Positions 34,501 through 64,000 of a stretch of 64,000 nucleotides of DNA are shown piece after piece. The stretch's first letter is position 1. Each line of letters begins with the position of its first letter. A program made the position numbers and the translations under genes. The notes beneath the pieces are model-generated. The model worked only from the letters and a program-made list of their open reading frames with translations. It was not told the origin of the DNA and did no database searches. This DNA is from Saccostrea cucullata (Eukaryota). The DNA lies in NCBI RefSeq assembly GCF_032062105.1, contig NW_026938254.1:248001-312000 (forward strand). The letters run 5' to 3'.

Positions 34501-37500
34501 GAAATGACGGAAAAAATCCGTGGTCAACTCAGTGTATAAATAATGGACTAAACATTGGTATGAAAAACGTCAGTAAGCATTTCATTCAATGATAAATTGT
34601 ATTTGCTGACAAAGTCATTGTATCGACCATAGAATTTACGAAATGATGACTTTAAACGAGACTGTTAATATTCTTGTTTCATCAACTTGCTTGTCAATAA
34701 TTTACCTCGTTTAAGAAATTGTTCATACGTAGAGCATGCTCTTGCGTATCGAATCAAATGAGATATAAATACTCCGTATGCAGGTGATGAAGGTATATTG
34801 CTGCATAAGTAAGGGAAGTTGACGATAGAAAAGTGAAAGTCATCACGTTTATCATATAGCTTGGTTGTTAAATTACCATTAGTCTCTTTTTCAAGTAAAA
34901 TATCCAAGTATGAAGCAGAAGTGTCGGACTCTGTGGTATCTTTTGTCTCAAGCTCATCAGGATATATCGTGTCGACGTAGTGATGGAAATTATCATTATT
35001 AATTAACAATACGTCGTCTATATAATTAAATGTCGAGTTGAAGGCCACAGCAAGTGTTTTCTTCTTTTCACGTAAAAGATTTTGCATAAATTCTGCTTCA
35101 TATGAATATAAAAATAAGTCTGCTAATAACGGAGCGCAATTTGTACCCATGGGAATTCCAATAGATTGTTGGAATACCTGGTCTCCAAAAACCACATAGA
35201 TATTGTCAATCAGAAACTCAAGCATCTTCTTGATGTCAACTTCAGAGTGCTTATATGTGCAATCAGAATCTGTTTTAACAATATAATTTTTCAAATGACC
35301 AATGACGAGGTAGGTAAACTTACGAGTTCCATTTTTGTTGAAGAAGCAGCTGTCAATGATATCAAAAAGCCTGGATTTTAATTTGTCGTGGGGAATTGTT
35401 GTGTATAAAGTAGAAAAGTCGTACGTTTTTATGCTGTTGATTTTTGTAAAGTTTTGTGATTTCAAATTGTCCAAAAGTTCTTTAGAATTTTTAAGTATCC
35501 ACATCTGATTTACACCACTTCTTGAATATATAGTTGTACAGTACTCTTGAAGTTTTTCCTTCACTACTGTCAATATTTTAGTGAGAAGTAACGAAAGAGG
35601 CTTGGTTGAACATTTACTGGAACCTGCAAGATCTGGAGATTATATGTCTCCCATAGATGTTCCTGTGGCTGAATTTGATGAACCTTGTGCTTTAAGTGAA
35701 GAAGCAAGTGCACGCACCGTGCGAAAAACTTACCCAAATGGTTTCAGGACTACGAAGTTGATTTAAGTGCTCAGAGCTATAAGATAAGCTATTGTAAATA
35801 TGTAGATAACCTGTCTTGATAATATTGAAATATGAGTACTTGAAGTTTTTGTATAATTTTCATAGATCATGGTTAATACAAAGATTACTCCCAGGAAGGA
35901 AGGTCATCGATGTCCGATGTGTCATCTGAGAATTCTAGACGAGGTTGAGTGGGAGAGACATGTGGTGGAATGCGGCAGACAGCGGAGACAGAAGAAATTC
36001 GAATGCACCGATTGTGATTATGCTACTAATAAGAAAAGTGACATGGGGAGACATCGCTGCACTCGACATAGTGAAGTAGTTACGGCTGCAACTGATAGCG
36101 GCACAGATGATTGGGAACAGTTGGACCAAGGAAATCTGTCTGATGTGGTCGGGAGCACAGCACAGAGTCGTCCTGCGGAAGCCGTCTGTCAGAGGAAGCC
36201 TACCAGGCCAGCTCAAGTCTCTGCGCCGATATCCAAGTCCATAACCAGCCAGGACCCCTTGACGCCACGTGCTCCATCACCATTCCGACATCCAAAGACA
36301 ACTCCCAGAAAACGGTCCTCTGTTCATTTGGATGCACCTCCCGTACAGTTGCCATCTCTAACTCAGGATGCCAGTACGCAGACCCACATGTATCATCAGT
36401 TAGTTGATGCGAGTACCCTGACGGATAAAGACTGTGAAGAGAAAGGCACCCAAACAGAGAAAGAAAAACGGCGAAGATTAGACAGGGTATAGGAGACATA
36501 CCAAAGAGACGGGAAAACAGTCGTTGAAGTGCATGAGGAGGAAAGCTGGTTTTGAAAACAATATTCTCAGTTGTTATTTTTCTGACATTGATATTGGATG
36601 ACGATTTCATGTCATATTGGATATGTTTGCACATTATGAATCATTGGTTGATTGTTTTCTTATTTTATCAATGACAATGTTTGATGATATTTGGTTAATT
36701 TGTGTGTGCAACATTTGTTACATCTTATGAACAATGAAAGCCAGGTAGCTTTAAAATTTGTTGTTATTTTGTTTTATACCACGCGTTATATCTTTAGCCC
36801 AGGTAGTTAATGATTTAATGCGGGACGCATTCCTGGAGGCGTGGGTAATGAAACAGAACTAGGAATCGAAATGATAAATCCCATTCTGTCCTCCGGAAGC
36901 TTCGTGTGAAATAAATACTTCCTGTTTAGTTTACCCTTTCGATCCTCGGAGATCACGTGATAGTTTAGGGTATATAAGCAGCAATATCAGAGCTCTAAGT
37001 CAGTTCCAGACTGAAGTCGACACCAGTAAGTTGTTTCCAGTGAAGGTGAGAATTGTAAACTTGCTTAACAAGTCTTATGTGCCTGAATAAGGCTTTCAAG
37101 ACTGTTGTATTTATTTTACAAGTTGGTAAATATTTCTTGTTTGCTTAGCTAGGAAGCGCACGTGCTCCAGGACAGAATAGGATATTGTATATATTGTTAA
37201 TTAAAGTCCTTGATTGAGAAGTTTTATAATTATTTGATTTATTCCTTAAAATGCTCAGGCAGAGCAACCGAATCTTGTTTGTAATTAAGCAATTTTTTAA
37301 AACTATTTTTATCCATTCATTACATTTTATTAAAGTAAACTTTTCCTTTTTTATATTTTTAAGGGAGGGACTGTATTGGTTGTGCTAAAACAGGAAGTGG
37401 AAAGACCGCAGCTTTTGCTTTACCTATTCTACAAAAACTTTCAGAGGATCCTTTTGGCATTTTTGCATTGGTGTTAACCCCAACAAGGTTTTTGATATAT

Positions 37501-55322: not shown

Positions 55323-56149
55323 TCATAAAATATCAAGTGTAAGAAAATTTTGTAAAATTGATGGACATTTAAGTTGTTCCAATTTCATTTCCACATGAAC
55401 ACCATCCATTTGACTCCTAATTGTCTTTCTACACAGATGTTTTAGACACATGGGATCGTAGGTACAATTTAGAATATGTTCATGTAAAGAGCTTGAACTA
55501 GGCTGTGAAAATGACCTAATCCAGCACTGGTCATTCTGTAGATTGTACCCTGCCTCTAATAACAATGAAACGTTGTCTGCATCATTTTGACTCGTCAGAG
55601 TTTGTAATGGTGTACCTTTTCCAACCAAGGCAACATTGTTTGAAATGCAACCAGCTCGAATGAGGGCTCGAGTTAAATTTTTATCGCCGTGAATACAAGC
55701 GTAGTGGAGCGCAGAACAATGGAGTAAGTCCACCTGGTGGACATTCGCGCCATTTTCAATCAAAAGTTTGACCATGTCGCAGTTTCTAGCGAAGGCAGCA
55801 CGCAGAAGCGGTGTCGTCTGCTCTTTGTCCACGTGGTTGACGTCAGCTCCGTGTTTGATGAGATATGCCGCCACCTGATACTGGTTGCCAAGACAAGCCC
55901 AGTGTAGAGGCGTCCGCCCCTGACAGGGGTCACTGAAATTTACTGACGTCCCAATATCTATCAAATATCTAACGATTTCCATGTGCCCTTCGTTCGCTGC
56001 AGCGCCAAGCGCGCTGGCGCCCTCCCACCGCAAAGGATGGTGCGTGACGACATGTTTATCCACTCCTCCCGAAATCAACTGTTGCACCTCGTTCTTATTT
56101 CCATTGAAGATGGCTTCAAATATGAGAGAATGTGGATCTTTTCTCCTTT
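55323..56149 (-). CDS. Ankyrin repeat and SOCS box (ASB-like) protein, main exon; N-terminal exon(s) unresolved
   Basis: About 5-6 ankyrin repeats (GRTPLHWAC, TTPLLRAA, SALHYAC) and a C-terminal SOCS box (PMCLKHLCRKTIR..LKCPSILQNFL). Acceptor ttgtag at 56150. Confidence 0.9.
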
Positions 56150-57581
56150 CTACAAAACAAGGAAATAAAACTTTTTTTAAAAAAATATATAAAACGTTAA
56201 AAAAATGTAATTACTAATTTAGGCGCGCTCAGAGATAATATTTGCTAGAAAACCTTCAAGATATTTTTTTTACATTCATCATATTCGGCGTGTTTACTTT
56301 ATGAGTAAGGGAAAAATGTTTTGACTACGATCCACCCTGAAATACGGCTGAGCGAAATGCATAAAATTACACAATTGATATTTAAAAACACGTCATGCAC
56401 TGACTGCACTTGGTAACTTGGTGTAGCTTTAACAGGGAAATGGATATTTAAAAGGATTCGTAATGGCATTGATTACTACATCTATTTATGGTCTAACAGA
56501 AAATGGGCAAAACATCTTCAAAATCATACGAACTCGATCAATTGTGTTAATTTCTTGGATTACGTTGATTTTGAAAATTTGTGAACTGAAACATCTGTAA
56601 TGGATAAGGATTCTTTTGTTAGTTCCGATACTAATTCTGTTCAATGTACTATTCTTTTCCTGTAGATAAGGAAGCCTAACATTTTCTGTGTCACGTCTTT
56701 GAAAAGTGTCCAAGGTATATGTGTGTTGTTTAATATTTCCACTTAATTACATGTACTTGGTATAACCCCCCCCCCCCCCCCGGAAAATTATACGACAGCA
56801 ACTTACCAGTTTTACTGTCCTCATTAAAAATATCTGAATCACAAATTTTAACAGAATCAATTATTCGTTACTTTATCTTTGTTGACATTTGTTTGTTGAG
56901 ATTTACTTCAACGTGTTCAAGTGTTGGTCAGTAACCTTTCCCTGATTTAGTTCTCTTTTATATGAAAAGAAAGGTTAAAAACGTCAAGCGTCTATGTTTT
57001 ACAATCGTTTAACCAGTGTTATCAAAGATAACGTATATAAGGTACTCACCGAATTGTCTTGTGAACCTGTCGGTGTACAACTGTCCATTAACAACGTTTA
57101 ACCAATACATACTTGTCTATCATCTTACTGTGCCATGTGTTTTGTAACTTTAAAACCACGTGATTTCTTTGTTTCCCTAGTACAAATATATCGCATACGT
57201 AACGCGCTAAACATAAACACATGAAATTATGCATGAATTCAATGTTCCATAAAGTAGCTAGCATGTCCCAGAAAGAAACCAGATACCAACATCGGTAATG
57301 ACAGGCGCGAGTGTCAATGAATATAACTTTCTACGACATATAAATATTGCTGCTTCCATTCATGTTCTTCGTTCATCCAATAAGAGCCTCTCGGCAAGCT
57401 GAGATCGAGAAAACAAATCAAAACCCCTTTCCAAAGAAGACCCCGGTGGGTCACAACACTCACCTGTATCACCTCCAGGCACATTTGAATGTTTATTACC
57501 CGAACTCACACTATATCTGGAAGGGGGGGGGGAAGATTTTTTTTTTAAACATCCCCCCCCTCCCCTTTATTGTGGACGTAG

Positions 57582-60962: not shown

Positions 60963-62905
60963 AAAAGTTTTAATCCCCTACTCCACTTTTTTATCAAGTT
61001 TGTCCAGTGGTCTAGCTTATACTTTATTTTTGAAAGTGGGTGGGCTCCTCATAAACAACTTATGAATAACTTCTCATTATCTTTTTTAAGGGGGTGACGT
61101 GGGGGTCCAATGTCTTTTTTAAACAAATATCTCAAGACCCCTAGACAAGTGAATGTAACGAACTTTATGAATTAAGCTTTTAAAATTTTATCAGCTTTTA
61201 TGTAACAGTTTAACTTTTATGTTACAGTTTAAACTTGAATTAATTTGCAGATTTTTAGTCATAGCCATGGATCGATATATATTTAATGTATACAAATTAA
61301 TCTTGCTTACAAGTTATAAATGTATATTTTTACCTGACTGCATTAAGATTCCGGGGATACTAAGTATTCACAAACACAAACACACACACATAAGAAATTG
61401 TAAATAGGGCACTACAGTGTGTAGATAAGTATCATCAAATAATGTCAGAGTGTCTCGGTCACTGACATTCAGTCGATATCACCATGTCCTCAGAAACTCT
61501 GCCTTGTCTGTGGGGCAGCTTTATGATAACAAAATCTGGGTCAAGCCTCATGCACGTGCTTAAAGTGTGTATTTATTTTTTTTTTGTTTATCCGAATGCA
61601 ATCAGAAAAAGGCAGAATACTTGCATGACTTAGTTTTCTATGAAACTAAAATTAATCTAGGTATCGGGAGCGATGATTTCTATTTGCAAAATATATTGAC
61701 ATTCTGAAATTAAATGAAAAAAAAACCCGCGCCAAATTTGTTTCGTGCAAACTTCTGAGACGCCCCATTATTTCCGTTGCTTTCAGTTTCAGTACTAGGC
61801 ATGGAGGTCGTTATTTTTGCTTACTGCGTGTTTTTCACGACTAGTACAATTACAGTTTCAAAGAAACTTTTTGAATAGTCTTATCAAACTTTTTACGCCC
61901 AGACGCTGGTACACAGTGGTGAGAGCTACTAAAGTGCATCACTGAACATTTTTGGACCTTAACATTTCTTTAACCTTGACCTTACTTTTCCTACATTTGT
62001 GTTCAGCTCAAAATTCAAAGGAACTGTTCAAGATATTTTTACATATTGACGAGAACTATTCTACTTCATCAATAGTGTTTGACCTTGACCTTTCAATATT
62101 TGACTTTGACCTTTCTTTTGAAATTTTCTTCATTTTTCTTAAATTTGTGATTAGCTTAGCTAAGATTCAAAGACACTTTTCAAAATATTTTTATCGAAAT
62201 TTATACGCTGATAAATATTGATGAAATCCGTTTCACTGCCTCAACATCTTTTAACCTTGACCTTTTTTTTGACCTAACATGATATAAAGTACATGGTAAT
62301 CTCAATTTCAACTTAGGATATTTTAATCAAATCTTACATGCTTATATACATTTTGGCTAGAGCTATTAAACTGAATCGACTTTTTTTTTTTACCTTAGCC
62401 TTTCTTTGACCTTGACCTCACATATCTTTTAAAATGATATCGAGATCATCAAGTTTAAAGAAACTATCCAACTTGAAGGTATTTCATCCAACTTCATTCA
62501 CTGATTTTCATTATTGAGGAACCCTGGACGGGACATCCATGTCCTATGGACATATTATTAATTATATACCGAAACTTATATCTTTAAAAATGATAATTTC
62601 AGTGATTTGGGGCTTTTATTTCAATGAGTCGACACTGAAAACATGCAGTTATATATGTTCAACCATAGACGTTTGCACAAACATGTGCAAAAGGATTGGC
62701 CTACATGTATCACAGAAACAAATATTTATGCAATTTATTTAAGTATTTACATGTATTATTACTTGTTTTAAAACTCATTTATATTTAAAATTTTCTCTCT
62801 TTAGTTCATTTGGAGTCAATGAAGTCACCTGCATAAAAAGAAAGACAACTCTATTTGAAGCACGAGAGTGTACTTTCATTTTGACAACACGGTCATGTGT
62901 CAGAC

Positions 62906-64000
62906 ATGGCTGTGCCATTCTTCAATGACACACGGTATTTTAGCTTTAGTGTAAAACTTCTGTTATCGGAATGTGAAGACGCAGCGAAACCTCCAGAAAA
63001 CACCCAGGATATTGCTTCTGAATGGAGTCTCGGGGCAGAGATATCCTCGTGGTTGAGGAAAAACATTTTTTATAACGAGAAAGTGAAAGTTGATACCTCA
63101 TGTTCGCTGATCAGAAGCTACCAAGGAGAGCTGGACATATATAGTGGATTTATTCTTGCGTGCATTTTTGTAATTTTCTTCACGTTAGTGCTGCCCTTAA
63201 CTTTCGTCAAGATTTTGGATTTCTTTGATAAGAAGTCGTGGAGATTGTTAACAGAACAGATAACTAGGCCTAGTAAAGACGATGATTCCATTTCTGAAGA
63301 CTTGGATGCTAATGAATACAATGAAACAGCTGCAACAAAACCCACATCACGGGAATTTATTCCTCTCTCTCACACTGCTTCTTACTCTGGGAATACATTT
63401 ACCCCCAGCTGTGACCTCCCATCATTCCTGAGGCGGACCGTGGATTGTCTGTTCCAAGAGCTTGACAAACTCTTGATAGGAAGGAATCCGCCTCAACAAG
63501 AAGGTCCTCTACACAGTACGGTGACTTCTTCCGTCCGTCTACCACGCCGAGCCTTACCTAGAGCCAGCGGAAGGCAGAACAGTTCCCCTACATTGTCCTC
63601 ACAGAACAACGAGGATGATACTGAAGCTCTCGCCTACAGAGAGTTCCTACATAATATAGTATACAACGGCACTTGTACTCAGATGATTGACATCCCAGAA
63701 TCTGTCCAACGGCCACTGCAAGGAAAAGGTAGAAAATTGATGGACTTCTACCTCAATTGCTGTATGGTCAGCTTTGAGGAGGTTTGTGTGTCAAACTTAA
63801 TAGTTAAATATACCATTCACCTTATAGACAAAGTTCTTAAAACAATGAAGCCATATAATGGTATCAGATATATACAGTGTTGTCCAACCGGAAGCATGCT
63901 GAAAGGCACAAAGGTTGGGGCTGCAAATCAAAGTGACTATTTCTTTGTATTCCAATGTACAGAGTTTGGACTGTCGTCTTTTATTGATCACAGTATAAAT
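62906..64000 (+). CDS. Transmembrane Mab21/cGAS-like nucleotidyltransferase-fold protein, partial (open to the window edge)
   Basis: 365 codons with no stop from ATG 62906; upstream in-frame stop at 62882 and an acceptor at 62804. Hydrophobic segment GFILACIFVIFFTLVLPLTFV (aa ~81-101). Motif PTGSMLKGTKVGAANQSDYFFVF at 63884-63952. Confidence 0.75.
   Translation, partial: MAVPFFNDTRYFSFSVKLLLSECEDAAKPPENTQDIASEWSLGAEISSWLRKNIFYNEKVKVDTSCSLIRSYQGELDIYSGFILACIFVIFFTLVLPLTFVKILDFFDKKSWRLLTEQITRPSKDDDSISEDLDANEYNETAATKPTSREFIPLSHTASYSGNTFTPSCDLPSFLRRTVDCLFQELDKLLIGRNPPQQEGPLHSTVTSSVRLPRRALPRASGRQNSSPTLSSQNNEDDTEALAYREFLHNIVYNGTCTQMIDIPESVQRPLQGKGRKLMDFYLNCCMVSFEEVCVSNLIVKYTIHLIDKVLKTMKPYNGIRYIQCCPTGSMLKGTKVGAANQSDYFFVFQCTEFGLSSFIDHSIN

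Follow-up and report, generated by a model that had tools for sequence, protein, structure and literature searches.

A probable membrane-anchored pseudo-cGLR of the oyster Saccostrea cucullata and its mollusc-wide family

Membrane-anchored, catalytically dead versions of the cGAS fold have been described from vertebrates, namely the ITPRIP family and MiD49/51. MiD51 is a pseudoenzyme with one remaining acid that binds ADP or GDP through Ser and Lys contacts to the phosphates and acts as a recruitment platform for Drp1 (PMC3926961, partial text), and transmembrane segments have been proposed as a gain of early vertebrate evolution (PMC1784063, partial text). Active cGLRs are defined by the pattern h[QT]GS-x8-20-[DE]h[DE]h-x50-90-h[DE]h (Li et al. 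2023, PMC9980059, partial text). In mouse cGAS, the E211Q/D213N protein binds NTPs and is essentially inactive, and Asp307 is the base that takes the proton from the nucleophile (PMC11091121, partial text). Here we describe a gene of S. cucullata whose product is probably a membrane-anchored pseudo-cGLR of the ITPRIP/MiD-type scaffold kind, found across molluscs and independently evolved.

The gene lies at the right edge of a 64,000-nucleotide stretch of the S. cucullata genome (the window; G000:C20391:248001-312000), and its features are listed in Table 1. An earlier note on this DNA had reported a 365-codon frame with no stop inside the window, and exactly this frame was found, running from the ATG to the window edge on the + strand, with an in-frame TGA (62882-62884) 24 bases 5′ of the ATG. 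The chance of so long a frame at the composition of the window is about 1e-12. When the sequence was extended to the right, as that note had advised, the frame stayed unbroken, with no internal stop, for another 987 bases past the window edge, ending in a TGA at L001:3580-3582, so that the whole CDS (G000:C20391:310906-312987) translates into a 693-aa protein (P0001). The gene is transcribed in a close relative, from which oligo-dT RNA reads and contigs, mostly 90-95% identical, cover L002 ~2820-5120 with few reads in each direction, and in each of the four runs (X21, X22, X3 and X1) no read covers L002 1069-1335 or 5341-5874. Reads fall about equally on both strands and thus do not give the strand of transcription. 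Contig pieces from the relative start at 62823, inside the probable 5′ UTR, and no splice junction linking the gene to an upstream 5′ exon was present among the 15 of 776 joints listed. Among 12 of the 16 indels in the relative's RNA, the two within the CDS are both 3 nt long, and those near the gene that break the frame lie past the stop.

Table 1. Features of the pseudo-cGLR gene, in positions of the window
Feature	Position	Strand	Basis or content
Probable 5′ part of exon (UTR)	62805..62905	+	Polypyrimidine-AG acceptor ends at 62804; acceptor scan
First 365 codons of the 693-aa CDS	62906..64000	+	Sequence and genome extension
N-terminal domain (aa 1-80), predicted lumenal or extracellular	62906..63145	+	Sequon N7-D-T, C23, C66, two predicted beta-strands
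Single predicted transmembrane helix (~aa 81-105), basic residues after it	63146..63220	+	Hydropathy, charge, model helix 80-110
Conserved helix A (aa 171-190) in linker	63416..63475	+	L186 39/46, D187 40/46, L190 40/46; pLDDT ~84-95
Disordered linker; candidate phosphorylation sites in its conserved [ST]-P-R-L-x-R-R and S-S-P motifs	63527..63592	+	pLDDT<50
Start of predicted Mab21/cGAS nucleotidyltransferase-fold domain (aa 272-675, mostly past the window)	63719..64000	+	VIA and Pfam
Degenerate catalytic loop: G329-S330 kept, Q342 for first catalytic Glu, D344 kept	63887..63952	+	cGAS alignments, family counts
CDS part beyond the window	outside	+	Contains Q463, K553, Mab-21_C lobe, invariant C-terminal tail

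The neighbouring genes gave no clue to function. An ankyrin-repeat and SOCS-box gene (55323-56210, - strand), which is transcribed in the relative, stands head-to-head with the pseudo-cGLR gene, and an exon of an amiloride-sensitive (DEG/ENaC) channel (L002:6300-7106, +) lies directly downstream, ~1.3 kb past the stop. A spliced AAA ATPase gene (~48-54 kb, +; Pfam AAA_2, ClpX-like by sight) and a DEAD-box helicase gene (~37.6-38.3 kb, +) are also present in the window, together with LTR-retrotransposon-like gag/pol frames in several pieces (29373-34329, +) and a separate reverse-transcriptase-like frame (34665-35639, -), both named by sight. A 1065-aa frame at 19182-22379 (-) unites an OTU-like protease, C2H2 zinc fingers and a MULE/ZSWIM transposase domain.

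Membership of the protein in the cGAS-like/Mab21 group, proposed in the earlier note, was borne out by the sequence past the window edge, where Pfam Mab-21_C matched aa 544-625 of P0001 (E 1.7e-10). Neither outcome that the note had named as refuting, a stop soon past the edge or no Mab21 fold beyond it, was seen. PDB sequence searches with P0001 matched cGAS, and among 23 orthogroup members Mab-21_C was matched in 23/23 and the Mab-21 NTase in 4/23. A complete Mab21/cGAS fold, having both an NTase core and a bundle of C-terminal helices, is predicted for aa 272-675. This part of the full-length AlphaFold model (pLDDT 69) matched MiD51 (VIA; Z 25.9, rmsd 3.1, 322 aligned) and cGAS (VIA; Z 25.4, rmsd 2.9, 311 aligned) in what amounts to a tie. 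A model of aa 164-693 from a deeper alignment (pLDDT 82, pTM 0.83) had as its best matches among 48,161 representatives MiD49 (25.9), Cv-cGLR1 (23.7) and cGAS (23.1), followed by Sp-cGLR1, Tc-cGLR, MAB21L1 and MB21D2. Homodimer prediction for aa 237-693, computed without an alignment, gave a score of 0.00, which speaks neither for nor against a dimer.

Alignments to cGAS placed Q342, D344 and Q463 at the three catalytic acid positions of this domain. The Gln at the first position, codon 63929-63931 in the loop TGSMLKGTKVGAANQSDYFFVF, was as the earlier note had read it, and the third catalytic Asp, which it had singled out for checking, is also gone. The conservation of these sites was counted in 46 orthogroup sequences (P0001-P0023, P0072-P0093 and P0095, which resembles a P0091 isoform; fragments P0094 and P0096-P0098 were excluded). 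An intact triad occurs in 0/46, placing the orthogroup outside the active-cGLR definition. An acidic residue occupies the first site in 1/46, the second (D/E344) in 45/46 and, with one gap, the third in 0/45; residues found instead are Q, R, H, A, K, S and others at the first and Q, N, R, K, H and others at the third. Residues kept across the orthogroup include G329 (44/46), S330 (44/46) and the phosphate-binding K553 (42/46), and positions that contact the nucleotide in cGAS are weakly conserved (S518 15/46, S520 21/46, Y573 24/46). Because the first and third acids are lost, and in light of the cGAS mutant and MiD51 precedents, we infer with some force that the domain is catalytically inactive, in line with the membrane-tethered pseudoenzyme suggested in the earlier note. 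That the pocket still binds nucleotide can be proposed less firmly, since other pocket positions vary, and the poor conservation of S518, S520 and Y573 indicates that it may not.

The part of the protein before this domain also agreed with the earlier description of an ~80-aa N-terminal region, one strong transmembrane helix and a Ser/Pro-rich linker. The hydrophobic segment (Kyte-Doolittle 2.7-2.8) is the sole one in the 365-codon frame and is followed by a linker rich in Ser, Pro and Arg. Topology was compared over 40 sequences of at least 670 aa (N-truncated P0013 excluded), which are related, so that the counts are non-independent. One strong N-proximal hydrophobic helix (KD>=1.9) was present in 39/40 of these, and the net charge after the helix exceeded that before it in 38/40 (means +3.8 vs -1.1). 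N-glycosylation sequons number 60 ahead of the helix, against 35.5 in shuffled sequences, an enrichment that is not seen behind it (159 against 182). In 31/40 a sequon stands at the first conserved Cys or shortly before it, the early sequon being missing in 9/40. C23 (41/46) and C66 (43/46) are present wherever a sequence covers them, the remainder being gaps, and beta-strands are predicted at aa 11-23 and 66-79, in a low-confidence region of the model. The conserved Cys pair, the sequon enrichment and the positive-inside charge point to a protein with its N-terminus in the lumen and its C-terminus in the cytosol. No cleavable-signal-like segment was seen at the N-terminus of the oyster protein, and an Atlas search with aa 1-112 gave no usable feature match, with every TM-by-query score <0.4.

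In the linker, conserved residues of these motifs are R211 (41/46), S226 (38/46), P228 (37/46) and P210 (36/46, replaced by V in oysters), and an [ST]PR motif occurs in 28/41. The most conserved segment of the whole protein is its C-terminal tail, Y-S-E-D-M-W-E-Y-E-Y-F-V-F-L (aa 680-693), in which S681, W685, E686, E688 and F690 are each found in 46/46, giving a family consensus of S-x-x-M-W-E-Y-E-[FY]-F. Of the proteins collected for comparison, those that carry this motif are all members of the orthogroup, cluster mates of these or fragments. Its last 10 residues are modelled with moderate confidence (pLDDT 62), as would suit a candidate partner-binding motif. A reading of it as a PDZ ligand was dropped because the C-termini of the orthologs differ (L, V, N, G, S, Y or F), and it does not fit the FFAT or LIR consensus.

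When 1.84 billion representatives were searched with a profile, 32 matches reached E<=1e-30, and each of the 32 best rows (E<=2.7e-50) is a member of the orthogroup or a fragment. P0099, the row that follows (1.4e-30), has its triad intact and lacks both the transmembrane segment and the tail. A second homolog search (alignment A2) added almost no members. Named orthologs come from Saccostrea, Magallana, Pinctada, three scallops, Patella, Biomphalaria and the chiton Liolophura; judged from these named sequences, most members carrying no species name, the family is mollusc-wide and ancient, spanning bivalves, gastropods and a chiton. In the S. cucullata genome, the NTase region had one matching place among 69 scored candidates, while Pfam Mab-21 had at least 150 matches (150/150 scored places, from 868 candidates). 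One copy together with deep conservation marks the gene as a conserved singleton standing beside the cGLR expansion and outside it. The earlier note had pointed to the expanded cGLR families of bivalves; the single genome match and the orthologs out to gastropods and chiton speak against that framing.

The orthogroup received 100% support in all five trees, where it sits amid triad-intact cGLR-like proteins. These are quick trees of very distant sequences drawn from the orthogroup's own profile matches, without vertebrate MiD, TMEM102, MB21D2 or MAB21L, and their AU tests used LG+G4 only. The labels ITPRIP, ITPRIPL1 and ITPRIPL2 come from source names for 4 rows and from resemblance for the others, and the labels cGAS (P0180) and MiD-like (P0147) were confirmed through PDB matches. 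Neither union of the orthogroup with vertebrate cGAS (p 0.117) nor its union with P0099/P0103 (p 0.133) was rejected. The oyster protein shares with cGAS, Cv-cGLR1 (8GJW), Sp-cGLR1 (8GJY) and Tc-cGLR (7LT2) the NTase core and helical C-lobe (Z 22-25), the GS loop and the phosphate-binding Lys, but differs in its incomplete triad, its predicted membrane anchor and its one conserved copy. It also lacks the zinc-thumb: C536 is found in 6/46, and the His/Cys set of the cGAS thumb does not align. Separately, P0115 (475 aa), which falls in the sister group of the orthogroup in two trees, is a Mab-21 protein with an intact E/D/D triad, a signal-peptide-like N-terminus and a C-terminal HDEL, and may be an enzyme of the cGAS fold in the ER lumen. 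Signal-like N-termini combined with intact triads occur in P0170 and P0127 too.

These comparisons bear on several other explanations of the gene. A still-active nucleotidyltransferase or hydrolase using non-canonical chemistry would be in keeping with the retention of G329, S330, G334, D/E344 and K553, each in 91-98% of the 46 sequences, yet the free variation at the first and third sites resembles relaxed constraint rather than new catalysis, and we consider such an enzyme highly improbable. It is also very unlikely that the protein is a mitochondrial outer-membrane Drp1 receptor like MiD49/MiD51 (MIEF2/MIEF1). Both are among its top structural matches and share its layout of transmembrane anchor, disordered linker and pseudo-NTase with one acid. 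The role could moreover be vacant, since a MiD-like query found no close match in the S. cucullata genome (best E 3e-6; the assembly may be incomplete), which suggests that a MiD ortholog is missing from this oyster; a Pfam MID51-like_C search of that genome returned nothing, its positive controls being likewise blank. The Z score for MiD51, however, is tied with that for cGAS, identity to the two MiD proteins is 14-18%, and P0001 has no sequence match to MiD51, which MiD-like P0147 matches at E 1e-44. In addition, PF21297 (MID51-like_C) had 0 matches in the 23 orthogroup members, and union with MiD-like P0147/P0204 was rejected (p 1.5e-13); a homolog search from P0147 retrieved no named MiD. 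The oyster N-terminal domain is also longer than that of MiD and bears sequons, pointing to the secretory pathway rather than to mitochondria. True orthology to vertebrate ITPRIP (DANGER1A), ITPRIPL1 and ITPRIPL2, with a role for the gene in controlling the calcium channels formed by IP3 receptors in the ER or nuclear envelope, is unlikely in our assessment. The layout of a short ectodomain and a single transmembrane helix before the Mab21 fold is shared, as is the decay of the triad, with first and third acids lost and the second kept. The best Atlas matches by features and structure are ITPRIP/ITPRIPL2 clusters, pairwise BLAST slightly favours ITPRIP (E 1e-12) over cGAS (7e-7), and automatic annotation names the Mizuhopecten and Biomphalaria orthologs ITPRIP. 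That BLAST match, however, spans just 118 C-lobe residues, and ITPRIP-like proteins form a separate branch in all trees, clustering with other, triad-intact proteins. They also begin with a hydrophobic signal-like stretch and lack the tail motif, whereas in the oyster protein the N-terminal Cys pair is conserved, helix A lies within a long linker and the WEYE tail is invariant. Union with the ITPRIP-like rows was rejected in two separately built alignments (p 3.9e-4 in the profile alignment, 8.1e-5 with MAFFT), as was union with single ITPRIP-like subgroups (p 0.0044 and 0.0036). The analogy to membrane-anchored ITPRIP and MiD proteins drawn in the earlier note is one of architecture, and the trees argue against orthology. 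An origin of the orthogroup independent of both, by convergence, is the better-supported reading of these trees, though not proven, given limited sampling and a simple model.

The earlier note had also suggested an innate-immune receptor. As an immune component, the protein would be a membrane receptor or sink for the cyclic dinucleotides of active cGLRs, or their dominant-negative partner, a role compatible with a cGAS fold whose pocket is partly kept, with the abundance of Mab-21 matches in the genome and with tree neighbours that are triad-intact and cGLR-like. We judge this distinctly unlikely, because the one copy found is deeply conserved, unlike the expanding cGLRs, the zinc-thumb set is missing and the flanking genes are non-immune. 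The domain is also far less basic than that of cGAS (net charge +4 in the oyster protein and a mean of +2.9 in the orthogroup, n=26, vs +9.9, n=7), although this is a weak point, as other cGLR-like rows average +2.2. The gene is retained in Biomphalaria, a heterobranch. STING has been reported absent from heterobranch gastropods and from the owl limpet (PMC9334734 and PMC11103948, partial texts). Retention in a group reported to lack STING speaks against a link of the gene to STING; there is a slim chance that a molluscan cGLR became a STING-independent membrane receptor for the cyclic dinucleotides of the hundreds of cGLRs in molluscs, signalling through the invariant tail and kept where STING is reported lost. 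Nothing was found in support of a role in immune sensing.

With two of the three catalytic acids missing, a scaffold is likelier than a signal-making sensor, and the explanation we favour, and hold to be likely overall, is that the 693-aa protein is a single-pass, catalytically dead, nucleotide-binding scaffold of the Mab21/cGAS fold and not a second-messenger synthase. Its small N-terminal domain would be glycosylated and disulfide-pinned, lying either extracellularly or in the lumen of the ER, with the transmembrane helix inserting as a reverse signal-anchor and a phosphorylatable linker leading to the cytosolic pseudo-NTase. The pocket may hold a nucleotide through the GS loop, D344 and K553, and the conserved C-lobe and invariant tail would draw a conserved partner to the membrane, the function being one in housekeeping or development. 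Such a scaffold would most likely derive from an active cGLR in the mollusc stem, independently of vertebrate ITPRIP and MiD49/51.

As it stands, the gene offers no evidence for a new immune pathway. A separate mollusc-wide lineage suggests that animals have, on at least three occasions, made a membrane scaffold out of the cGAS fold. Catalogues of cGLRs require an intact triad and so miss the family, and automatic annotation calls its members 'uncharacterized' or ITPRIP. Four ortholog accessions and two family motifs found no member in six supplementary files of Li et al. (PMC9980059), the long ones perhaps incomplete, and searches by ortholog identifiers and topic found no paper on the family in literature outside subscription. 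Having one conserved copy and an invariant tail, the family is an easy target for learning the function of a pseudo-cGLR, both in bivalves that are farmed and in the snail that hosts schistosomes.
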